A stretch of 64,000 nt of DNA from Nitrospirales bacterium. GTDB taxonomy: Bacteria; Nitrospirota; Nitrospiria; Nitrospirales; UBA8639. A program made the translations under genes and the position numbers. The stretch spans positions 992,001 to 1,056,000 of the forward strand of contig CBDCWC010000002.1 in NCBI GenBank assembly GCA_965223295.1, written 5' to 3'. The notes under the pieces are model-generated. The model saw nothing but the letters and a program-made list of their open reading frames with translations. It was not told the DNA's origin and searched no databases. Positions 373 to 62,882 of the stretch are shown piece after piece (positions within the stretch are counted from its first letter, which is position 1; every line of letters starts with the position of its first letter).

Positions 373-556
373 AAGCTTCAGACCTCATCCTTATCATCAT
401 CTTGTTTCGGCACAAACCTCGGCAAAAAATTCACTCAAAAAATATCTAAGAATTATGCTGTGAAAATTAAACTTATACATTAATTTATGCTTTATATTTC
501 AATTTAATAAATTTGTAATTCTATTATTATCATTGATCAATATGTAAGCTTCCCCG

Positions 557-1417
557 TCAAGCGGACAGGTCATAACTAGAGTGTTCTGGTGTTGGTTGAT
601 AATAGGCACAGGGCGGTGTTCCCCGTAGCGCGTCATGTGGGCGGTGTTCATTGTAGATGGTCATCCACTCGGACGTGAGTTCCCGCACTTCCTCTAAACT
701 CCGAAACAGATAGAGATTCAGCACTTCATTCCGATAGGTGCGATTGAATCGTTCAATAAATGCATTCTGTGTGGGACAACCGGGTTGAATGTGATAGATC
801 AACACGCGATTGGCTTTTCCCCAATCTTTTAGTGCCTGTGAGAGAAATTCTGGTCCGTTATCAACCCGAATCATGTGAGGTAACTCCCGCTCAGTCTTCA
901 AGCGGTCCAACACGCGGATAATCCGTTCAGCTCTTAGAGAGGTATCAATCTCAATCGCCAAGACCTCCCGATTGAAGTCATCGAGGATATTGAAGGTGCG
1001 AAACCGCGTGCCGTGATACAAGGTATCGCTCATGAAGTCGGCTGACCACACCTCATTGGGACCTTCTGGCACAAACACCGGCCAGGAAGGACGCTTGGGC
1101 AGCTGGCGTCTGGTGCGACGAGGCTGATTGTGTCCTAACTGCCGATAGACGCGGTACACCCGTTTGTGATTCCAGACATGTCCGAGGACTCGCAATCGCC
1201 GGATATATTTCCAGATGCCCCAGCGCGGGTACTGCTCCACTAACTGATTCAGGGCCTCAATAATTTCCTGATCACGGATCTGCCAATCAACGGGCGCTTG
1301 GTAATACGCCGACCGAGAAAATTTGAGAGCCACACACCCTCGTGTGATCGAGACGCCATGTGTCTCTTGTAGGGACTGAATGGCCTCCCGTTTCTCCGCC
1401 GGCGTTAGAGCTTTTTT
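557..1417 (-). CDS. IS3 transposase OrfB (DDE/rve), reached by programmed -1 frameshift
   Basis: WSADFMSD, RVDNGPEF, PTQNAFIERFNRTYRNE motifs; the frame stays open upstream of 1333 to the A7G slippery site at 1411-1418 (KKALTPAEKREAI...). Confidence 0.93.
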   Translation of the reverse strand, partial: KKALTPAEKREAIQSLQETHGVSITRGCVALKFSRSAYYQAPVDWQIRDQEIIEALNQLVEQYPRWGIWKYIRRLRVLGHVWNHKRVYRVYRQLGHNQPRRTRRQLPKRPSWPVFVPEGPNEVWSADFMSDTLYHGTRFRTFNILDDFNREVLAIEIDTSLRAERIIRVLDRLKTERELPHMIRVDNGPEFLSQALKDWGKANRVLIYHIQPGCPTQNAFIERFNRTYRNEVLNLYLFRSLEEVRELTSEWMTIYNEHRPHDALRGTPPCAYYQPTPEHSSYDLSA

Positions 1418-1671
1418 TCGATCAAATCCTTCAGCGCCCGATTCTCTAAGGCCAGATCCGCATACATCCGTTTAAGCTTCGAGAGTTCGCCTTCTGTTTC
1501 TTTGAGGCGTTTCAGATCCGAGGCTTCTAAGCCCCCGTACTTCGCTTTCCAATTGTAATAGGTCGCATCACTGATGCCATGCTCCCGGCACAAGTCTTTG
1601 ATCTTGATGCCGGCGTCACCTTGTTTCAAGATGGCGACGATTTGGGTTTCGCTGAATCGACTCGTTTTCAT
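1405..1671 (-). CDS. IS3 transposase OrfA (HTH)
   Basis: MKTSRFSETQIVAILKQ...CREHGISDATYYNWKAKYGG...LKRMYADLALEN is typical IS3 OrfA. Confidence 0.95.
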   Translation of the reverse strand: MKTSRFSETQIVAILKQGDAGIKIKDLCREHGISDATYYNWKAKYGGLEASDLKRLKETEGELSKLKRMYADLALENRALKDLIEKKL

Positions 1672-1951
1672 GAGAACCTCCTGGGATCATTCTGCCAGAA
1701 CGCTCTACTTTTGGTCTGTTCGGATTTAGGGGAAGCTTACAAATAATTGTTTTAAGTCTAGCAATGATAACGTATCTAAAGCGGCCATGCCACTCGAAAA
1801 ATCTTAATTATTTACATTAATTTCATGCTTAAAAAAACTTCTACTCTCGACATTAGTTACCTGTTGGTCAACCAGCTTCTAATACAATCTACCCTTACTT
1901 ATCTATTACAATTTTAATTTCCGCAATCGGTTACGAAATACTTTCTTCAAA

Positions 1952-10275: not shown

Positions 10276-10398
10276 GTGAGGGAGTAAGGCGTAAGGAACC
10301 AGAGAAATGCAAGAAGAAAAACCGTATCTTTGGTCGAACAATGTTTTTCCTGGCCTTTGCTCCTTACTCCTTACTTTTCACTCCTAACTAACCTCACC
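10276..10398. repeat. Heptamer-based inverted repeat between convergent genes
   Basis: GTGAGGGAGTAAGGCGTAAGGA (10276-10297) pairs with TCCTTACTCCTTACTTTTCAC (10361-10381); degenerate heptamers continue to about 10398. Confidence 0.65.
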
Positions 10399-17455: not shown

Positions 17456-18574
17456 ATGCCGAGGAGGTTACGAATGAGGGTTTGGCTCACTACTGCCCTA
17501 TTGGGGTTCATATTTATTGGAATACTGACATCAGAAGGGTTAGCTCGCCGGACGTATTTTACTGCCGAACAAAAAGCTCAGCTCCAAGCAATTCAGACCA
17601 TTTGGGTGAAAGTCTTGGCATTAACCGAACGTGGAAAAGGTGATGGACAAGCCATCCAGGACATTATCCGAAAACGGCTCACTAACCTTGGCTATGATGT
17701 TGTCACAAGTCGGGACGACAAATCAGATGTCATGCTGATGGTGAAGTGTGAAGAACGAAAGAAATGGTCAGGCACGACACGTGCTGGTGGAGATGCTGAC
17801 CATGAAGATTCGCCTGCCCGCCTATGGACAGGACCAGCCTGTCATTTTTCGTACCGCCTCAATGGAAAAGATCTTGGGTGGCAAAAAGAAGCCCGGACGG
17901 ACTTTGAAGATTCTGTGGTCGCCGCGAAGGCGGCCAACGCTCCAAAGTCCGGTCCTTATGCGCTAGACCAGTTGGCCAAACGGTTAGAAACCTTTGATTT
18001 CCCAGTTATGCTTGCAGCCGAATGGGGACACGATACCCATCTTTTCACATTGCTGAAAGATCCAGAGACCCCTAGACCCAGAAAGTTAAAGATTTTATCC
18101 TTGCTGCCTGACATGGAATCTCATGGCGCCCTGCCATTTATCAAATCGTTTTTTCAGGATCCAGAAATGGCAGAACCAGCAATTGTAGCATTAGCCGCTA
18201 CTGGAAGCGAAGCCATTCCCCTGCTCACAGAGGTCTTTCAAACGCACTCAGACTCAAAGATCCGGGCTGCGGCCGCCAAAGGCTTAGGAGAAATTGGGGC
18301 ACATACCGGTGATCCGGCAATTACCCCACCTATCCTTGATTACCTGATTGAAAATTTACGGCATATGAACTCATCCGCTGATATTGATTTTCCGGTGTTG
18401 ACTGAAGTGGTCTGGAGCTTAGGAAAACTCCGCAATGAAAACTCTATTCCACCTATGAGAGAATTAGAAAAAAAGGTGTGGCTGATCTATGACACCTCAA
18501 AAGAAATGACAGAACTTCGAGATGCAACAAATTGGACGATCAAAATGGTGGATATGGATGGCCAAATTCAATAA
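17456..18574 (+). CDS. Exported HEAT-repeat protein, paralog 2
   Basis: Colinear with paralog 1 (VLALTE.G, VKCEERK.W.GT, RLW.GPAC, DFPV.L.AEWG, DIDFP.LTEV.W). Confidence 0.8.
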   Translation: MPRRLRMRVWLTTALLGFIFIGILTSEGLARRTYFTAEQKAQLQAIQTIWVKVLALTERGKGDGQAIQDIIRKRLTNLGYDVVTSRDDKSDVMLMVKCEERKKWSGTTRAGGDADHEDSPARLWTGPACHFSYRLNGKDLGWQKEARTDFEDSVVAAKAANAPKSGPYALDQLAKRLETFDFPVMLAAEWGHDTHLFTLLKDPETPRPRKLKILSLLPDMESHGALPFIKSFFQDPEMAEPAIVALAATGSEAIPLLTEVFQTHSDSKIRAAAAKGLGEIGAHTGDPAITPPILDYLIENLRHMNSSADIDFPVLTEVVWSLGKLRNENSIPPMRELEKKVWLIYDTSKEMTELRDATNWTIKMVDMDGQIQ

Positions 18575-18714
18575 GGGCATCTCTAAAAACTGAAGATTTT
18601 TCTGAGGGCAAGGAAGCGGCGCGCGGAAAACCGCAGTGTATGGGCCGATACATGAGGATTTGAGCATGCGGCTGACGCCACCCTCGGGAAAAAGAACAGT
18701 TTTTAGAGGTGTCC
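18575..18714 (+). mobile_element. MITE-like palindromic element, family A copy 1 (140 bp)
   Basis: Terminal IR GGGCATCTCTAAAAACTG / CAGTTTTTAGAGGTGTCC; AATAA on both flanks (18570-74, 18715-19); close copy at 33921. Confidence 0.85.
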
Positions 18715-18805
18715 AATAAGCAAAGAATTATTCACTCCAAGCTCTCTTACCCTTTTAGGACTTAGCCGCAAAGAGAGGACAAGGCTGGGATGAGGGTTAA
18801 CGTAT

Positions 18806-19363
18806 TTGATGGTTAAGCCACAATATATTCATTCAAAGGGCCCTCATGCCGTATCAACACTCACGCTAATTATTTTTCTCAGCACGACTTTCAGTTCTCC
18901 TCTCCTAACTGATTCCCTCGCACAACGCATGGGAGAACAGGCCGAGATGGATCGGCTTGAGCAACAGGCAGATGATCTTGCCGCCCAACAAGACCCGGAA
19001 GGAGCAGCCTCGGCTATTGGCAAGGCCGCTATGATGGCCGACCTGTTAACAAAAGACTCTCAAGAGCCTACTGCTGAACAAATTTTTCATGGCGCATCCC
19101 ACCTTTTTCGTGCCCAAGAATTAGGCCTGCGGGCACTAGCCCTATTCGAACGAACTGGAGGCCAGCCACCAGCTCCAGCTGGAGTCTGCCACTATCTTGT
19201 CCAGAGTACTAATAAGTTACAGCTAGCTCAAACATTCCTAAAAAGCCCACTCATTATCAAACAAGAAAGTCTTCAGGCAAGACAAAAGAATCTTCTTAAT
19301 AAAAATGATGAATGGAAAAAGTTACTGGTCGGCTTACATGAAGACTTTGCGTGCCCGCACTAA
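18806..19363 (+). CDS. Hypothetical exported helical protein
   Basis: Signal-like N-terminus; GAASAIGKAAMMA; two Cys. Confidence 0.7.
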   Translation: MMVKPQYIHSKGPHAVSTLTLIIFLSTTFSSPLLTDSLAQRMGEQAEMDRLEQQADDLAAQQDPEGAASAIGKAAMMADLLTKDSQEPTAEQIFHGASHLFRAQELGLRALALFERTGGQPPAPAGVCHYLVQSTNKLQLAQTFLKSPLIIKQESLQARQKNLLNKNDEWKKLLVGLHEDFACPH

Positions 19364-19419
19364 CTCAACACACAATTAAGCTCCGCCTCGATCTTACTCC
19401 TGCTGCTCGAGTCACTTCA

Positions 19420-19609
19420 GGGACTGTTGAACAATGATGATAGCAACGACCACATTTCGTGTCTGAGAAATAACATGTCAGAGACCGCAGGTCTGTTCAA
19501 AAAAGTCCGTTCAGCAAGGCCACAGCTCTTTTTGCCCGCGGAGCATACTGGCAGTATGTAAGCACAAAAAATAGCGAGAACGCCGCTGACGGCTTTTTTC
19601 AACAGACCC
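19420..19609 (+). mobile_element. MITE-like element, family B copy 1 (no nested insert)
   Basis: Ends GGGACTGTTGAA / TTCAACAGACCC; homologous to 23480, 29730 and 62006. Confidence 0.85.
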
Positions 19610-19617
19610 CTAACACT

Positions 19618-21141
19618 ATGATGCCAAAACCTCTTATTACAGCTTCAATGCTTTATAACCTCACAAGCTGTGAGCATCGCCTATACCTGGATACGTTTGG
19701 AGATCAATCACAACGAGGGGAACCAAACACCTTCATTCAACTATTATGGGAAAAAGGCACGCTCTTTGAGAAAGAAGTGATGACCCACCTAGAGCTCCCT
19801 TTCCTCGACTTGTCCTCCTACAAAGGAGCTGAGAAAGAATCTCGCACACGGGAGGCAATACAACAACAAGCGCAACTTATTTATGGCGGGCGCCTTTCTA
19901 TAAATCATCTATTGGGAGAGCCTGATTTATTGCGAAAAGAGCAAACGGGTTATGTCGCCGGCGATATCAAATCAGGTGCCGGAGAAGAGGGCAATGAAGA
20001 CAATGGCAAACTCAAAAAATCCTATGCCGTCCAACTAGGACTGTATACTGATATTCTCGAGCAGCTTAACTTTTCCGCTGGTCGGTGGGGTTTCATCTGG
20101 GACACCCATGGGAAAGAAGTACGTTATGATTTTAGCCAACCTCAAGGATTACGAACACCCCAAACTTGGTGGGAGCTCTACCAAACCTATCACCAACAGG
20201 CCCATGACATCCTTAAACAACAGCGTCACACGCAAGCGGCCTATAGTAGTGGAGTCTGTAAACTCTGTGAATGGTATCGACCCTGTTTGCTCCAACTGCA
20301 AAAACGCGATGACCTCACGTTGCTCCCTGAGTTAGGCCGCACTAAGCGTGACATTCTTCAGAAGAACTTTCCTACAGTTCAGGACTTTGCCTCGGCTGAT
20401 CTCAGCGAACTCATTCAAGGCAAGAAAACCCCCTTTCCTGGAATTGGCCAGGGAACCATGAAAAAACTCCATGCTCGCGCCCAACTCATTGCGGAAGGAG
20501 ATCAGGCACGCCCTTACCTGCGAGAACTGATCGACTTACCTCCTCATGAATCAGAGATTTTTTTTGATATTGAAGTAGATCCGCTTCGCGATCATACCTA
20601 TCTTCATGGCTTCATTGAACGTCAGCAACAAGATAATACATCTGAACAGTTTGTCGCCTTTTTCGTTTATCAGCCTACTCCAGAATCAGAACGCACGGCC
20701 TTTGCTCAAGCCATACACTATCTGCGCCAGCATCCCGATTCAAAAATTTATTATTACTCCAAATATGAACGCACGCTCTATCGAAAACTCCAAGTCAAAT
20801 ATCCTGATGTTTGCTCGGCTGAAGAGATTGAAGCCCTCTTTAATCCAGAACGCGCCATTGACTTGTATTTCGATGTGGTCTTAAAGGCCACGGAATGGCC
20901 CACTCGCGATTATTCGATCAAATCACTGGCGAAATATTTAGGCTTTGTTTGGCGAGACACTCACCCCTCCGGCGCCGCCTCGATCGAGTGGTTTCATCGT
21001 TGGGTAGAAAGTGGCGATCATGAGATCAAGCAGCGCATTCTGGACTACAACGAAGACGATTGCCGGGCTACCCGCGTTTTATTAGATGGGATAAGGCAGC
21101 TATCTCCTCGAACGGTCCCTGACTCACCACAGAACATTTGA
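19618..21141 (+). CDS. TM0106-family RecB-like nuclease with C-terminal RNase H-like domain
   Basis: CEHRLYLD, G.PDLL, DIKSG, QLGLY, CKLCEW..PC; FFDIEVDP, YSIKSLA, ILDYNEDDCRAT. Confidence 0.88.
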   Translation: MMPKPLITASMLYNLTSCEHRLYLDTFGDQSQRGEPNTFIQLLWEKGTLFEKEVMTHLELPFLDLSSYKGAEKESRTREAIQQQAQLIYGGRLSINHLLGEPDLLRKEQTGYVAGDIKSGAGEEGNEDNGKLKKSYAVQLGLYTDILEQLNFSAGRWGFIWDTHGKEVRYDFSQPQGLRTPQTWWELYQTYHQQAHDILKQQRHTQAAYSSGVCKLCEWYRPCLLQLQKRDDLTLLPELGRTKRDILQKNFPTVQDFASADLSELIQGKKTPFPGIGQGTMKKLHARAQLIAEGDQARPYLRELIDLPPHESEIFFDIEVDPLRDHTYLHGFIERQQQDNTSEQFVAFFVYQPTPESERTAFAQAIHYLRQHPDSKIYYYSKYERTLYRKLQVKYPDVCSAEEIEALFNPERAIDLYFDVVLKATEWPTRDYSIKSLAKYLGFVWRDTHPSGAASIEWFHRWVESGDHEIKQRILDYNEDDCRATRVLLDGIRQLSPRTVPDSPQNI

Positions 21142-22779: not shown

Positions 22780-23478
22780 TTAGAACAAAAATCCGCCAAT
22801 TTTGTCCGGCAGGTGACATGTTTCGCAACGATTACTGAGGACCTCACCGTCATAGGTTTGCTTTCCATCATGACACCGCATGCAATCAGCCATCGTGTTT
22901 TTCCAAAGTACAGAATTTTGAGGAAAGGCTGGCTCATGAGATTGGTCATCAAGTTTGACATGTCCGCGAGGAATGACAATGGGGTAGTTTTTTATTGGCG
23001 TTCCATGGACCACACGAGCATGACAGGTTGTACAACCTTCTCCCTGTCCACGTTTCTCGAACGCTTGCATATGGTCTCGATGATCCATGATGAGACCCAC
23101 CTCTTTGACAGGAGATGGCAAATCACGTGCTGAGACCTCGCTGACTCGCAGGATTGCCCGATGACAGCCAAGACAGACTTCTGTTGAGACATGGGATTGA
23201 AGGTTATGTGGTTCTGTGGGAGTTCCAAAGAAAGTAATGGCGACATCTTCTAGTCCTGCCAACACCTTATCCTGAATAAAACCGGAGAAGCCAGGTCTGA
23301 CATGGCAATCCACGCAGGTTACATCCTGATGACTAGAACGCGTCCAAGAATCGAAAGACGGCTTAATGGTATGACAACTCGCACAAAAGGTAGGCTGGTT
23401 GGTAAGAGGAATGGCTGCCGCCCCTCCTAAGGCCAGCACGACAAGCGCGGCCAAGATGAGGGTCAGACTTTTACCCAT
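22780..23478 (-). CDS. Membrane-anchored hexaheme c-type cytochrome (NapC/NirT-like N-terminus)
   Basis: N-terminal TM; six CxxCH motifs (CASCH, CVDCH, CLGCH, CTTCH, CMRCH, CETCH). Confidence 0.9.
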   Translation of the reverse strand: MGKSLTLILAALVVLALGGAAAIPLTNQPTFCASCHTIKPSFDSWTRSSHQDVTCVDCHVRPGFSGFIQDKVLAGLEDVAITFFGTPTEPHNLQSHVSTEVCLGCHRAILRVSEVSARDLPSPVKEVGLIMDHRDHMQAFEKRGQGEGCTTCHARVVHGTPIKNYPIVIPRGHVKLDDQSHEPAFPQNSVLWKNTMADCMRCHDGKQTYDGEVLSNRCETCHLPDKIGGFLF

Positions 23479-23479
23479 A

Positions 23480-23704
23480 GGGTCTGTTGAAAAAAGCCGT
23501 CAGCGGCGTTCCCTGCCCTTGCCGAAGCGGCTTCGCGGAGGCAGGTCGCCATTGTTCCGTGCTCACGTCGTGCCAGGACGCTCCGCGCGCAAACATGGCT
23601 GCGGCCTTGCTGAGCGGACTTTTTTGAATCGACCCGAAGTCGCTCATCATCCATGGGTGCCTGGCGAAATATGCCCCTTGATATCTTCACTATTCAACAC
23701 TCCC
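23480..23704 (-). mobile_element. MITE-like element, family B copy 2 (with nested 34-bp hairpin)
   Basis: GGGTCTGTTGAAAAAAGCCG...TTCAACACTCCC; reverse-complement homolog of 19420 and 62006. Confidence 0.85.
23512..23545. repeat. 34-bp REP-like hairpin nested in a family B element
   Basis: CCTGCCCTTGCCGAAGCGGCTTCGCGGAGGCAGG; absent at the same site (GTTC^TCGC) in copies 19420 and 62006. Confidence 0.8.
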
Positions 23705-23713
23705 CAATGAGAT

Positions 23714-29729: not shown

Positions 29730-29957
29730 GGGCCTCGTAAAAAAAGCCGCCAGCAGCGTTCCCTGCCTTCGCCGGAGCGGCTTCGCGCAGGCAGGTCGCC
29801 ATTGTTCCGTGCTCACGTAGGACCAGTACGCTCCGCGCGCAAGAATGGTGGCTGTGGCCTTGCTGGACGACATTTTTGAATGGCCCCAATGTTGTTGATG
29901 GCAAACCGCTTTCGGGCGAAATATGGCCCTTGATATCTTCATTACTCAACCACTCCC
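29730..29957 (-). mobile_element. MITE-like element, family B copy 3 (with nested 34-bp hairpin)
   Basis: Colinear with the 23480 copy; flanks CAGAT / AAGAT. Confidence 0.82.
29762..29795. repeat. 34-bp REP-like hairpin nested in a family B element
   Basis: CCTGCCTTCGCCGGAGCGGCTTCGCGCAGGCAGG at the same position as 23512-23545. Confidence 0.8.
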
Positions 29958-30173
29958 AAGATAGGCTTTGACAAGGCAAATCACGCCCACTAGAGAGTTC
30001 TAAAGACGAGACCGGCAAACCTATTTCATCAATCAAAAGTGCAAAAAATATCGGAAAACCTGAGACATGTAAAAAATCCTGAACCTGTTTTAAATAAGAT
30101 AAACAGCACTCAAGAAGGTTGAGACAGAGGAGAAAGAAGTACGTACTGGGGAGATAGATTGTGTAGCGGGCCG

Positions 30174-33691: not shown

Positions 33692-34214
33692 TCGTCTTGG
33701 ACATTTCAGCCAGGCTGGAGCAACTGTTGGACACCCAAAAGAGCAGCTCGTCTGTGAACGTTATCTGATAGAAGACGAATCATTTCACGTCCCTCACCTC
33801 TTCGATGTGAAAATCGTTCAAATTCTTCGACGCTATGCCCATCAGAACTTGCTCGCCAAATGACGTATCATAGAAACCCGCAAAGATTTCCGAGACTTTC
33901 CACTCATCCCGTATTCTTATGGGCACCTCTAAAAGCTGATGTTTTTTGAGGGCAAGGAAGCGGCGCACGGAAAACCGCAGTGTATGGGCCAATACATGAG
34001 GATTTGAGTACGCCGCTGACGCCGCCATCGGGAAAAAGGACGGTTTTTAGAAGTGTCCTTATGATCTTTTCCTTTCACGCATTTGGCCGTTGCGAGATAA
34101 TTGCACGGCCTATGATGCCGTAGATGTGACCTTAGCCGAGACATTCAATATTCCCTTTGTGACTGTGATACATGGTTTGCCACTGCTTCTGGTCATTCTG
34201 CCAATTTGTTCTGA
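33688..34214 (+). pseudogene. VapC PIN-domain toxin pseudogene interrupted by a MITE
   Basis: Pieces MIVLDISA..., HVPHLFDVKIVQILRRY, DFPLIPYSY|DLFLSRIWPLRDNCTAYDAVDVTLAE, CD...A.ASGH; frameshifts and a TGA at 33861. Confidence 0.8.
33921..34058 (+). mobile_element. MITE-like palindromic element, family A copy 2 (138 bp)
   Basis: GGGCACCTCTAAAAGCTG / CGGTTTTTAGAAGTGTCC; TTAT on both flanks; removing it rejoins the vapC frame. Confidence 0.88.
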
Positions 34215-62005: not shown

Positions 62006-62195
62006 GGGAATGTTGAACCATGAAGATATCAAGAGCCATATTTCGCAGGAAGCCCTTGGCGATCAACAACATCGGATCGGTTCAAAAAAGTCCGTCCGGC
62101 AAGGCCACAGCCATGTTTGCGCGCGGAGGGTACTGGCACGACCTAAGCACAAAAAAATGGCGGGAACGCCGCTAGCAGCTTTTTTCAACAGACCC
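62006..62195 (+). mobile_element. MITE-like element, family B copy 4 (no nested insert)
   Basis: GGGAATGTTGAA...TTCAACAGACCC; ACAAT on both flanks (62001-05, 62196-200). Confidence 0.88.
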
Positions 62196-62198
62196 ACA

Positions 62199-62882
62199 AT
62201 GTATCCTCTTTTACTGCTAATCATAGGTATCATGATGTGGCCTTCCCAGGCATCCACCGCAATGTTTCGCTGCTATGATCAAGTGGGCTCACAAATCTTG
62301 ACCGATAATCCCGCCCAACTAACCGACTGTATACAACTGAAGTCCTCGATCATTTCATCATCCCAAGAATACCAAAATCTTCCCCAACCAGCCCCGGCTC
62401 CAGATGCCCTCCCTGCCCAAGGATATTCAGAATATTCTGAGCCCCAGACATCAGAACAACACAATCAAGGGCCACACTCCGAGACAGATCTGAACATTCC
62501 ACTAGAAAAAATTGGCGGCTCATTCATTGCTCAAGCCATCCTCAATAAGGGACGTGCCGCTAGACTGATCGTGGACACGGGAGCTTCGATGACCGTCCTG
62601 TCAACCAACATCGCCATTGATCTTGGCATTCTTGGAACAACTGATAATGAATTGCTCACGGTTAATACCGCTGGTGGTTCAGTACAAGTTAACATGAACT
62701 ATCTCCGCTCTCTCAATGTTGGAGAAGCAGAAGCCCAGCATGTCGCCGTGGCGATTCATGACCTCCCAGATATCCCTGAACAAATCGATGGTTTGTTAGG
62801 CATGTCTTTTCTGAAACATTTCCTGGTTACCTTAGACGCTGAGCATTCCCGCTTAATCCTTCGTTCTAAACCTACCCCCTAA
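62199..62882 (+). CDS. Exported retropepsin-like (clan AA) aspartic protease with DUF4124-like N-terminus
   Basis: Signal peptide MYPLLLLIIG; LIVDTGAS, TAGG, GLLGMSFL; the ORF-track extension from 61947 reads through the MITE. Confidence 0.88.
   Translation: MYPLLLLIIGIMMWPSQASTAMFRCYDQVGSQILTDNPAQLTDCIQLKSSIISSSQEYQNLPQPAPAPDALPAQGYSEYSEPQTSEQHNQGPHSETDLNIPLEKIGGSFIAQAILNKGRAARLIVDTGASMTVLSTNIAIDLGILGTTDNELLTVNTAGGSVQVNMNYLRSLNVGEAEAQHVAVAIHDLPDIPEQIDGLLGMSFLKHFLVTLDAEHSRLILRSKPTP

Follow-up and report, generated by a model that had tools for sequence, protein, structure and literature searches.

We have examined a 64,000-nt stretch of a Nitrospirales contig (the window) in which six copies of two families of short repeats, A and B, lie where a sequence-only reading had placed them, the second and third family B copies ending at 23707 and 29959. 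Copies were scored with three covariance models, R1 built from family B only, R2 from ERIC only and R3 from a cross-phylum sample with no ERIC or B seed, all E-values being taken from a shortened calibration. The copies and their features are as follows.

18575..18714, forward strand: A1, family A MITE of 140 nt with ends GGGCATCTCTAAAAACTG ... CAGTTTTTAGAGGTGTCC
18609..18613, forward strand: CAAGG landmark of A1, from the sequence
18630..18659, forward strand: conserved core of A1 (ACCGCAG, stem TGTAT, loop GGGCCG, stem ATACA, TGAGGAT), matching the core pattern
18674..18678, forward strand: GACGC landmark of A1; the consensus of alignment A4 has AACG at the equivalent place
19420..19609, forward strand: B1, family B MITE of 190 nt, R1 128 bits
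19540..19562, forward strand: apical module of B1 (GGAG, CATAC, TGGCA, GTATG, TAAG), from the sequence
23480..23707, reverse strand: B2, long family B variant with an insertion of ~34 nt, R1 55.1 bits
29730..29959, reverse strand: B3, long family B variant, R1 49.1 bits
33921..34058, forward strand: A2, family A MITE with TTAT at both flanks, R3 65.1 bits (E 5e-17), R2 15.4 bits
33974..34003, forward strand: conserved core of A2, from the sequence and R3
62006..62195, forward strand: B4, family B MITE with ACAATG at both flanks, R1 116.6 bits
62125-62147, forward strand: apical stem of B4 with one mismatch, from the sequence

A1 scores 62.2 bits with R3 (E 3.6e-16) and 26.0 bits with the ERIC model R2 (E 1.7e-4). 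In B1 a hairpin core element of 122 nt is preceded by a 70-nt 5' extension that has an end of its own, and the R3 alignment of this copy spans 19498-19602 (13.3 bits, E 0.069). R3 also finds local matches on the reverse strand of B2 (23562-23585, 8.0 bits) and B3 (29812-29835, 13.0 bits, E 0.085), each of which carries an extra palindromic insertion of ~34 nt, and gives no match in B4 at E≤10. The landmarks proposed as common to both families, CAAGG, G(G/C)AG, T(G/A)AG and (A/G)ACGC, are present; genome-wide, a regular expression for them finds 116 B and 19 A places and none elsewhere, and a search of this genome for other shells found the landmark pattern confined to A and B. The apical stems likewise read as originally described, CATA/TATG in B1, CGTC/GACG in B2, CGTA/TACG in B3, GGTA/GACC with one mismatch in B4 and TGTA/TACA in both A copies. 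A promoter and terminator scan of 18400-19800 gave no signal beyond that in shuffles.

Families A and B are true MITEs, non-autonomous and with different terminal inverted repeats and target duplications. Genome copies were collected with nhmmer, a check proposed by the sequence-only reading, yielding in the 3.78-Mb genome 50 family A loci (44 full length, 141 nt) and 319 family B loci (207 near full length, 191 nt), together 1.6% of the genome. Family A duplicates 4 bp, exactly so in 27 of 40 copies, at insertion sites of the form C|WWAW|G, and has twice inserted into family B, at TAAT. The family B duplication is 5 bp and exact in 88 of 162 copies; neighbouring duplication lengths and offsets, the control for this test, gave at most 12 matches in 162. 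The terminal stem of A is 18 bp long and 82-100% paired across the 44 copies, and the ends of B are GGGnCTGTTGAA / TTCAACAGnCCC. Copies of both families, small, non-coding and high in copy number, are situated between ORFs, with only 7 of 220 B copies falling inside an ORF in a crude ORF call. Thus terminal inverted repeats, target duplications and numerous small, non-coding copies, the attributes by which MITEs are recognised, are found in both families, and for A an autonomous element with the same ends exists in congeners. REP/RAYT and IS200/IS605-type hairpin elements, in contrast, lack a target duplication and are biased with respect to the replication strand; the duplications of A and B, together with the orientation of B relative to the leading strand, 113:105 in summed counts and so free of replication-strand bias, rule out assignment of either family to these groups.

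The ends of A can be traced to a larger element. In seven congeners A ends occur as pairs separated by ~1255 bp, and one such locus, L205, is an IS5-type element of 1255 bp with a TTAA duplication and an ORF matching DUF772 (4e-24) and DDE_Tnp_1 (7.9e-24). Family A resembles the MITEs of IS5-family insertion sequences in that its ends and 4-bp duplication are also those of a DUF772 + DDE_Tnp_1 element, but shares only ~16-20 nt per end with it, its interior not being derived from the IS. R3 detects no core in L205 (best score 6.2 bits), and in elements of 99 nt the A ends enclose an unrelated interior. Since A ends occur on these core-less elements, the 1255-bp IS and the 99-nt elements, shell and core are separable, which bears out the earlier proposal that different MITE shells are involved, the families differing in their ends and in their duplications of 4 and 5 bp. 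Parent elements are not resident in this genome, in which no A or B end pairs are found 300-4000 bp apart; the 1255-bp IS5-type element is absent from it, having been found in congeneric species. Six IS-like repeats are resident and were rejected as parents, having other ends or, in the case of one with GGGCCTGT ends, 8-bp duplications.

A mobilising element for family B was found neither in this genome nor in congeners, and two long B-end pairs in congeners proved to be ordinary genes. The B ends begin with GGG and, we presume, resemble Tn3-family ends, and Tn3-derived miniature elements (TIMEs) likewise make a 5-bp duplication. TIMEs are, however, mostly single copy and mostly from Pseudomonas in the accessible text of PMC4133298, as against 319 loci for family B, and this genome has no Tn3-type transposase. 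A Tn3 origin of B was rejected, there being no PF01526 match in the genome and no support in the accessible text of the TIME paper (PMC4133298).

Covariation was evident along the family B hairpin. RNAalifold returned no structure for 220 B copies and chose a partly different fold for 42 copies, and the minimum free energy hairpin of the B consensus was therefore supplied directly as the structure. Among 42 copies, 17 of the 44 pairs had changed on both sides, compared with 8.4 ± 1.9 in shuffles, none of 500 of which reached 17, and 5-8 pairs in slid controls. Changes on both sides were observed in 10 of 26 pairs of helix 1 and 4 of 13 of helix 2, and the G.T closing pair was kept in 175 of 207 copies. 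The claim that the apical stem covaries thus holds for family B and not for family A, in which the apical stem is invariant. Shared, subfamily-level variants in B stems show an excess of wobble pairs (369 G.T vs 185 A.C), an excess absent from rare stem changes (31 G.T vs 52 A.C), which probably arose after insertion. As the rare changes show no wobble preference, inserted copies appear to be unconstrained.

Comparison of A, B and ERIC by primary sequence gave no convincing similarity. The core quoted for ERIC in the sequence-only reading is genuine, occurring at 12 places in E. coli K-12 with at most 3 mismatches and at none in a reversed control. Local and global consensus alignments of A with B and of B with ERIC were not significant relative to dinucleotide- and structure-preserving shuffles (p 0.03-0.9 overall, 0.04-0.9 for A with B), and nhmmer profiles of A and B detected no ERIC above noise among the ERIC loci, a chance match in thrA scoring equally. 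The links among A, B and ERIC consequently rest on covariance models and intermediates. With R1, the four highest-ranking matches within 39 kb of E. coli loci are ERICs, and other matches include a Nitrospiria element (52.6 bits, E 3e-11) and elements of Balneolales (45.0), Scalindua (42.6) and Bacteroidales (36.7 bits). With R2, A copies rank first in the window and again across 43 kb of loci, where 9 of 10 A loci score 17-30 bits, all in one orientation; scores were 123-151 bits for ERIC copies, 17-30 for A and 9-20 for B. R1 and R2 reward any long hairpin, and the reverse strand of ERIC itself reaches 19-32 bits with R2.

R3 comprises only 11 base pairs. In E. coli K-12 it gives highest scores to a six-copy repeat (59-73 bits), followed by 12 of 12 ERICs at 14.1-28.0 bits, the top background score being 11.2, so that the second proposed check, in which covariance models were built and ERIC scored against them, places every K-12 ERIC above background. 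Of 40 B copies tested, R3 detects 36 at E≤1, 26 of them also at E≤0.01, the highest score being 28.5 bits; it scores family A at 62-65 bits and matches none of three core-less 99-nt elements. Cross matches between families are all in a single orientation. As judged by these model scores, A, B and ERIC fall within the cross-phylum core superfamily as defined by R3, and the ERIC-like character suggested for the repeats agrees across three independent tests, with the B-only, ERIC-only and cross-phylum models.

The distribution of the core was assessed with a 30-nt degenerate version of the A core, for which an arithmetic estimate predicts ~1 chance match; at least 122 loci were recovered. Among the matches listed are Chlorobiota, Bacillota, Bacteroidota, Planctomycetota, Nitrospirota, Rickettsiales and many other Pseudomonadota. 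The module occurs in repeats of at least 10 phylum-level groups, each time inside different ends, many of the carriers being metagenome bins whose taxon labels may be wrong and the isolates including Chlorobium, Bacillus, Metabacillus and several Pseudomonadota. Whole A elements are near-identical in Nitrospirales and Nitrospiraceae records and share 72-87% identity with elements from records of Gammaproteobacteria and Chlorobiota. The module is made up of the landmark AAGG, a helix P1 in which ACC pairs with GG-U and an A is bulged, an asymmetric internal loop of purines (GSA facing GA), a second helix, P2, with six pairs and a closing G.U, a loop of 4-7 nt and the landmark AACG. Among 48 representatives of cross-phylum clusters, AAGG is placed 17-20 nt upstream of the core, with G at position -18 in 79%. 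A K-turn reading of the purine internal loop is excluded, since the covarying pairs fix another register.

Pairing in the module is maintained by compensatory change. In the 127 matches listed, the outer variable stem pair is TA in 82, CG in 44, TG in 1 and CA in 0, and the inner is CG in 76, TA in 47 and other in 4; outside the pattern, pair 1 is GC19/AU17/CG11/UA4/GU2/1 other and pair 2 AU44/CG6/GC2/UA1/1 other. Across the cross-phylum core, 99.0% of cells are paired (shuffles, 88.1 ± 0.7), and covariation scores 0.337 as against 0.114 in shuffles, none of 500 of which reached the observed value. The sequence-only reading held that fold and not sequence is conserved. Near-perfect covariation in the 127 matches listed upholds the first part of this claim, but the second needs qualifying: the unpaired flanks ACCGSAG and TGAGGAT are also strongly conserved, indicating that sequence and fold are both kept. 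Families A and B each carry a diverged or intact copy of the module at the tip of a long imperfect hairpin, and it looks like one ancient, widely shared folded hairpin module across A, B, ERIC and the repeats of many phyla. Thus the observation made from the window is confirmed, and its interpretation is supported as largely right.

Several named repeats and RNAs share this architecture. ERIC/IRU, with 12 copies in K-12, is like A and B a hairpin MITE (~125 nt) with the same tip layout, GGAG, a 5-6-bp stem closed by G.T, a short loop and TGA, and has AAGG and AACGC landmarks at matching distances in alignment A3; model matches are reciprocal. The central inverted repeat of ERIC, GGAGCTTAC..GTAAGTGAC, has its layout repeated in A and B, which score 9-30 bits with the ERIC model against 123-151 for ERICs themselves. 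Like B, ERIC has lost the ACC/GGAU part of the core. Its ends (TATACTC...) and arms are unrelated to those of A or B, and its flanks are TA in the accessible text of PMC3184786, in contrast to duplications of 4 bp in A and 5 bp in B. A and B thus depart from the ERIC family proper in ends, arms and flanks, and nhmmer detects no similarity. The six-copy K-12 repeat, which is intergenic (ffh-rpsP, pyrH-frr and four further loci) and for which no published name was matched, is a closer relative in E. coli than ERIC, its centre being almost identical to the A core save for compensatory stem changes. It is the best R1 match in the entire K-12 chromosome (25.9 bits, E 0.028), differs from A and B in arms, ends and low copy number, and was matched in 5426 of 5426 E. 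coli genomes at a median of 4 places per genome.

Two Rfam families, which Rfam treats as separate single-genus sRNAs, also align with members of the superfamily. RF02228 sX9, the Rfam name of a Xanthomonas repeat that also contains the module, aligns with the tip and left arm of members from Gammaproteobacteria, Chlorobium and Citrobacter at 24.8-38.3 bits, and RF02818 V_AS5 (Vibrio) matches ERIC at 46.5 bits, every match falling below the gathering scores of 44 and 96, respectively. In an Rfam scan of 10 loci, two A loci (L153, L011) and one B locus (L034) had no match at E≤1, and A and B were not assigned to sX9, for which the gathering threshold is 44 bits. A 75-nt sX9 RNA was seen on Northern blots, as given in the accessible text of PMC3300014; sX9 is read from the strand opposite the ACCGGAG strand. 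Both sX9 and V_AS5 show that superfamily members have been observed as RNAs. Records of Rickettsia, Tisiphia, Jidaibacter and Midichloriaceae contain hairpin repeats of ~130 nt with an intact core and their own ends (TAGACTTCCTGCAAAAGTCGC...). The Rickettsia repeats may correspond to the Rickettsia palindromic elements (RPE). RPEs are often located inside genes according to the accessible text of PMC10969869.

The explanation we consider best, and hold to be probable, is that the A and B MITEs share one separable cross-phylum core which has been re-associated with various transposase ends and kept for its fold. Such a core would repeatedly join ends recognised by any available transposase, the ends supplying mobility only, and would be retained since one strand must fold. 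Elements co-transcribed with neighbouring genes could then present the core as RNA, either a processing or stability hairpin or the binding hairpin of a universal host factor, making insertions tolerable or useful. That the core acts as RNA following co-transcription is, in our estimate, not quite an even call. Copies between same-strand ORFs lean in this direction, with 78 B copies co-oriented vs 51 opposed and 17 vs 10 for A, as do retention of the G.T closing pair in B and the Northern detection of sX9, and ERIC alters mRNA decay via RNase E in Yersinia, as described in the accessible parts of PMC10969869 and PMC3184786. The RNA reading is nevertheless weak, the orientation bias being only ~60:40, sX9 being antisense to the ACCGGAG strand, inserted B copies appearing unconstrained, and B and ERIC thriving without the ACC/GGAU part. 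More tentative still is the wider proposal that a very old lineage of hairpin cores persists across most bacterial phyla, swapping terminal repeats to use whichever transposase is available, IS5-type for A and others for B, ERIC and the Rickettsia repeats, and remaining constant as universal host machinery reads it as RNA.

Alternatively, the core may work as DNA, a single-stranded or cruciform tip nucleating fold-back of the 120-190-nt palindrome and thereby raising transposition frequency, either by joining the ends of an element shorter than the DNA persistence length or through binding of a host DNA factor; selection would then act among element lineages and not on the host. Covariation of B along the whole hairpin, in helices 1 (10/26) and 2 (4/13) beyond the tip, is consistent with such a role, as is the wobble excess in shared and not in rare variants, which fits selection on copies still propagating while inserted copies decay, and conservation across phyla in a selfish element would most simply reflect an advantage in spread. 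We regard it as unlikely, however, since the 99-nt elements and the IS itself are mobile without a core, IS5-type DDE transposases recognise duplex ends and do not require a hairpin in the interior, the 113:105 distribution of B is unlike that of elements using lagging-strand DNA, and it would be strange for fold-back alone to demand a conserved G.T pair and a purine internal loop.

Another alternative is that the core descends passively, with no function today, from the 5' leader that an autonomous ancestor carried, its SD-like GGAG/GAGG and an ATG/GTG start held in a hairpin that blocked read-through translation. The 3' strand reads RTG AGG AT; ATG/GTG is present in all 127 matches listed, though enforced by the pattern, two SD-like purine runs face one another, short open frames follow in many members, and Delihas reported open frames in ERIC (accessible text of PMC2759123). 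Covariation this close to perfect, seen in many phyla and no fewer than 48 flank clusters, would not persist in a relic, the sole autonomous element detected with A ends lacks any vestige of the core, and the frames vary in length, that of family A stopping after 3 codons, making this a very improbable origin. Strongly disfavoured, at a probability lower again, is chance or convergence of GC-rich hairpins, with A and B as unrelated local MITEs. Non-significant consensus alignments, failed HMM searches and the tendency of hairpin models to inflate the score of any hairpin are what such convergence would produce. It does not account for at least 122 loci with a 30-nt pattern expected about once, for flanks outside the pattern sharing AAGG at a fixed distance and covarying pairs, for detection by the 11 base pairs of R3 of 12/12 ERICs and 36/40 B copies but 0/3 core-less elements, or for whole A elements 72-87% identical to those of Gammaproteobacteria and Chlorobiota with cross matches in a single orientation.

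A separable core shared among phyla departs from current descriptions of these repeats. Bacterial MITE families are described as lineage-bound with unrelated interiors in the accessible texts of PMC3184786, PMC10969869 and PMC11602168: a 2011 review finds the core sequences of MITEs from different bacteria dissimilar (PMC3184786), ERIC is limited to Enterobacteriaceae and Vibrionaceae in a review from 2024 (PMC10969869), and a 2024 census confines 97.4% of cMITEs within genus boundaries (PMC11602168). A literature search, with subscription journals outside its scope, found no publication uniting A/B, ERIC, sX9 and Rickettsia-type families. If true, the present interpretation would unite the six-copy E. 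coli repeat and the Rickettsia repeats with ERIC, sX9 and V_AS5 in a single family, whose transcripts would account for many "species-specific sRNAs", RNAs derived from repeats but annotated as if each were a distinct small RNA. Two members of the superfamily, ERIC and the six-copy repeat, are present in E. coli, and the proposal is thus easily testable. P2, the purine loop and the bulged A would provide concrete, mutable targets for the role of a MITE interior, a question dating from the description of ERIC.

The six copies in the window are found where the sequence-only reading had placed them, and their apical stems and four landmarks, CAAGG, G(G/C)AG, T(G/A)AG and (A/G)ACGC, were confirmed on reading the sequence. 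All six are intergenic, lying between ORFs, and A1 and A2 are 91% alike.

Family A and family B copies in the window and related sites in this Nitrospirales genome (G000; C2 and C3 are contigs)
window 18575-18714, + strand: A1, family A copy
window 33921-34058, + strand: A2, family A copy
window 19420-19609, + strand: B1, family B copy
window 23480-23707, - strand: B2, family B copy with an extra palindromic insertion of ~34 nt
window 29730-29959, - strand: B3, family B copy with an extra palindromic insertion of ~34 nt
window 62006-62195, + strand: B4, family B copy
window 19609-19618: B end and neighbouring start codon
window 23478-23480: B end and neighbouring start codon
window 62195-62199: B end and neighbouring start codon
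G000:C2:9400-9539: A within B, TAAT site
C3:1217410-1217550: A within B, TAAT site
window 23480-23707 and 29730-29959, G000:C2:369872-369948, C3:157698-157777 and others: B-end variants with other interiors

Profile search of the genome assembly (3.78 Mb, 47% G+C), in which the window is G000:C2:992001-1056000, detected 50 family A loci, 44 of them full length at 141 nt, and 319 family B loci, 207 of them near full length at 191 nt, the two families combined occupying 60,849 bp (1.6% of the assembly). A and B are true MITEs. A has an 18 bp terminal inverted repeat and an exact 4 bp target duplication in 27 of 40 copies, its insertion site having a preceding C in 24/40 and a following G in 24/40. 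B ends in GGGnCTGTTGAA / TTCAACAGnCCC, with an exact 5 bp duplication in 88 of 162 copies; in controls for both families, duplication matches were few at other lengths and offsets. In B, a 70-nt 5' extension is joined to a 122-nt hairpin element. In two B copies this extension holds an inserted A copy, at the same TAAT site in both, a nesting which indicates that A was active after B. The B hairpin element is present in each of 24 further genomes sampled within the genus, and weaker matches to it occur in other families of the same order. A is present in 6 of the 24. B is a mosaic family. Other interiors are observed within B ends, namely the ~34-nt palindromic insertion of B2 and B3 and a separate variant in which one arm differs. 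In the window, three of four B copies abut the start codon of the adjoining ORF, with a gap of 0-9 nt on the CAACAGACCC side.

Other repeats were also seen. Window 543-1741 (G000:C2:992543-993741) holds an insertion sequence of 1.2 kb, its ends reading TGTAAGCTTCCCC..., which has five near-identical genome copies. A third repeat family, very short, is formed by GGGGTCAGACTCGAATTAATTAATTCGAGTCTGACCCC, a perfect 38-48 nt palindrome with TA-rich flanks, at G000:C2:12917-12964 and about 20 other places. G000:C2:87356-91693 holds long tandem repeats in a ~288-bp register at >99% identity. Contig C1 (64.8 kb) is over its entire length 87-94% identical to part of C3:1,630,000-1,715,000, possible explanations being another, diverged copy, the presence of a second strain within the assembly, or an extrachromosomal twin.

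The compensatory changes claimed for the apical stem hold within B, where both-side changes over the hairpin exceed shuffled and slid controls, but not within A, in which this stem is invariant and which is therefore uninformative on covariation when taken alone. Pairing over the full hairpin reaches 92.1% in 42 diverse B copies (shuffled, 89.9 +/- 0.3), and both-side changes occur at 17 of 44 pairs, including 3 of the 5 apical pairs, compared with 8.4 +/- 1.9 in shuffles, none of 500 reaching the observed value, and 5-8 in slid controls. Among 220 copies, apical pair 126-138 is GC in 149, AT in 17 and GT in 5. G.T exceeds A.C pairs 369:185 in shared variants and is 31:52 in rare ones, counts which are not independent.

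Direct tests of a core shared by A and B fail. The best local match between the consensus sequences is a 16-mer with 14/16 identical (p 0.01-0.04), the global alignment is not significant (p about 0.8), and alignment against structure-preserving shuffles gives p 0.09-0.9. R1, a covariance model built from B only, scores the two A copies of the window at 14.5 and 12.7 bits, not above an unrelated 90-nt hairpin at window 10281-10370 (16.8 bits; 11.5 bits on the - strand), which indicates how far hairpin geometry alone can reach in such models. The link is supplied from outside this genome.

The pattern ACCGSAGYGTAY-N4-7-RTACRTGAGRAT, which has 18 exact positions, 6 twofold ones and 4 gap lengths, was scanned against 596 Gb of sequence in which each species is represented by a single genome. 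By our own arithmetic ~1 match is expected; at least 122 loci with at least 127 matches were obtained. According to record titles, carriers among the matches listed include Chlorobium, Prosthecochloris and other Chlorobiales; Bacillus, Metabacillus and one Bacillota bin; Rikenellaceae, Bacteroidales, Balneolales, Scalindua, Acidobacteria and Deferribacteraceae; Desulfobacula, Syntrophus, Desulfohalobiaceae, Bdellovibrionaceae, Binatia and Nitrospirota; Rickettsia, Tisiphia, Jidaibacter, Midichloriaceae and Holosporales; and many Alpha-, Beta- and Gammaproteobacteria, the proteobacterial carriers including Xanthomonas, Aeromonas, Pseudomonas, Citrobacter, Klebsiella, Pantoea and Photorhabdus. 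Many of the records are metagenome bins, and isolates from three phyla are also included. In the Bacillus chungangensis record (L085, 151-268), a core lies ~45 nt upstream of the 16S rRNA gene 5' end, the Rfam match to which begins at position 223. Two Wenzhouxiangella records (L133, L138) hold three tandem cores within 680-800 bp, indicating arrays of elements in some genomes.

In the core fold, P1 pairs ACC with GG-U around a bulged A, an internal loop sets GSA opposite GA, and P2 has six pairs with a closing G.U and a terminal loop of 4-7 nt. The free stem pairs, unfixed by the pattern, show near-perfect covariation, both states recurring over 48 flank-defined clusters. Over the 127 matches listed, the outer pair is TA 82, CG 44, TG 1 and CA 0 (Fisher p 1.6e-33) and the inner CG 76, TA 47, CA 2 and TG 2 (p 8e-30). 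Two pairs beyond the pattern also covary (GC19/AU17/CG11/UA4/GU2, 1 other; AU44/CG6/GC2/UA1, 1 other). For the 11-pair structure, 99.0% of cells are paired (shuffled, 88.1 +/- 0.7), both-side changes occur in 81 cells (21.8 +/- 8.3), and the covariation score is 0.337 versus 0.114 shuffled, reached in 0/500, with slid controls at or below 0.103. Most of 48 representatives have AAGG on the 5' side of the core at a distance of 17-20 nt (G 79% at -18), and AACG is found on the 3' side; these correspond to the outer landmarks first noticed in A and B.

The decisive test of a shared core was scoring with R3, a covariance model of 11 base pairs built from 54 cross-phylum sequences, with neither ERIC nor B among its seeds. 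R3 gives 62.2 bits to A1, 65.1 bits to A2 and 59-73 bits to a six-copy Escherichia coli family. All 12 ERICs rank directly below the six-copy family, scoring 14.1-28.0 bits with E-values from 3.2e-6 to 0.038; the best background match in 58 kb is 11.2 bits. For B, 36 of 40 copies match at E<=1 and 26 at E<=0.01 (top 28.5 bits), all in element orientation; in the window B1, B3 and B2 score 13.3, 13.0 and 8.0 bits and B4 is unlisted. R1 matches canonical-core elements of Nitrospiria (52.6 bits, E 3e-11), Balneolales (45.0), Scalindua (42.6) and Bacteroidales (36.7), with 86 matches at E<=1 in 100 loci, and Nitrospirota elements have an intact core plus B-type arms. Combined, these cross-matches and B-armed elements join A, B and ERIC via intermediates. 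B and ERIC are family members from which the ACC/GGAU part has been lost.

The ERIC motif cited in the sequence-only reading occurs at 12 places in E. coli K-12 at <=3 mismatches, and its reversed control at none. HMMs of A and B detected nothing in these 12 loci. With filters off, R1 gives its four highest scores to ERICs (20.4, 16.6, 11.8 and 11.6 bits), 6 of 12 reaching E<=10, every one in GGAG..TGA orientation. On the whole K-12 chromosome with strict filters, its sole match, between ffh and rpsP (25.9 bits, E 0.028), is a member of the six-copy repeat, whose centre is near-identical to that of family A, with compensatory stem changes, and which is matched in 5426/5426 complete E. coli genomes at a median of 4 places. 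For R2, built from ERIC only, the top two matches in the 64-kb window are A1 (26.0 bits, E 1.7e-4) and A2 (15.4 bits). On 43 kb of loci its matches share a single orientation and take in 9 of 10 A loci (five genomes; 17-30 bits) and about 20 of 40 B copies (9-20 bits), with flanking DNA at <=12 bits. The reverse strands of the ERICs themselves reach 19-32 bits with R2, a caution that long-hairpin models favour palindromes. The proposed ERIC-like structured core in A and B is thus supported by R1, R2 and R3.

The further proposal of different shells around one core also stands, the ends and duplications (4 versus 5 bp) of A and B being different. This genome yielded no long element bounded by A or B ends, and its six IS-like repeats have ends differing from both. 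In seven congeners, other genomes of the host genus, the A end pattern occurs in pairs ~1255 bp apart. Among these elements, L205 is flanked by a TTAA duplication, and its 361 aa ORF matches DUF772 (4e-24) and DDE_Tnp_1 (7.9e-24), indicating an IS5-type element. A and L205 have only ~16-20 nt in common at each end, R3 detected no core in L205 (best 6.2 bits), and no homologue of its transposase was found in this genome. Three congeners also hold 99-nt elements that combine A ends and duplications with an unrelated interior; R3 matches 0/3. Whole A elements are 124-132 identical of 140-141 to those in Nitrospirales/Nitrospiraceae bins, 120/138 to a gammaproteobacterial bin, 113/138 to Thiotrichaceae and 101/132 to a Chlorobium bin; the ends of other core-family members are quite different. 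For B, no parent element was found in congeners and no Tn3-type transposase in this genome. These observations support the ends of A and B being a separate, exchangeable layer.

We favour a role of the core as RNA as a candidate reading, with points on both sides. Rfam returned no match at E<=1 for A and B loci L153, L011 and L034 in a 10-locus scan; core-family members match sX9 below threshold (24.8-38.3 bits; threshold 44), and ERIC matches V_AS5 at 46.5 bits (threshold 96). In favour of RNA, relatives are known to occur as such: sX9 is a Northern-confirmed 75-nt RNA (PMC3300014), among the most frequently annotated Rfam sRNAs (PMC9029176), and ERIC in Yersinia changes mRNA decay via RNase E (PMC10969869, PMC3184786). 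Also counted for RNA are the excess of sense orientation between same-strand ORFs (B 78:51, A 17:10, by crude ORF calls), the absence of bias of B relative to the leading strand (113:105, summed counts) and retention of the closing G.T pair in 175 of 207 B copies. Against it, the sense bias is mild, sX9 lies on the opposite strand, and rare B stem changes seem unconstrained. A serious rival is a role as single-stranded or cruciform DNA, in which the core would help short elements to bring their two ends close to each other.

The reviews consulted handle ERIC, RPE and other repeats as separate families (PMC3184786, PMC10969869), describe no similarity among MITE cores of different bacteria (PMC3184786) and limit ERIC to two families (PMC10969869), and a 2024 census reports 97.4% of cMITEs as genus-specific (PMC11602168). 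No paper uniting ERIC, RPE and related repeats was found in literature outside subscription journals. By the covariance models A and B, though not ERICs themselves, belong together with ERIC to a wider structured-core family.
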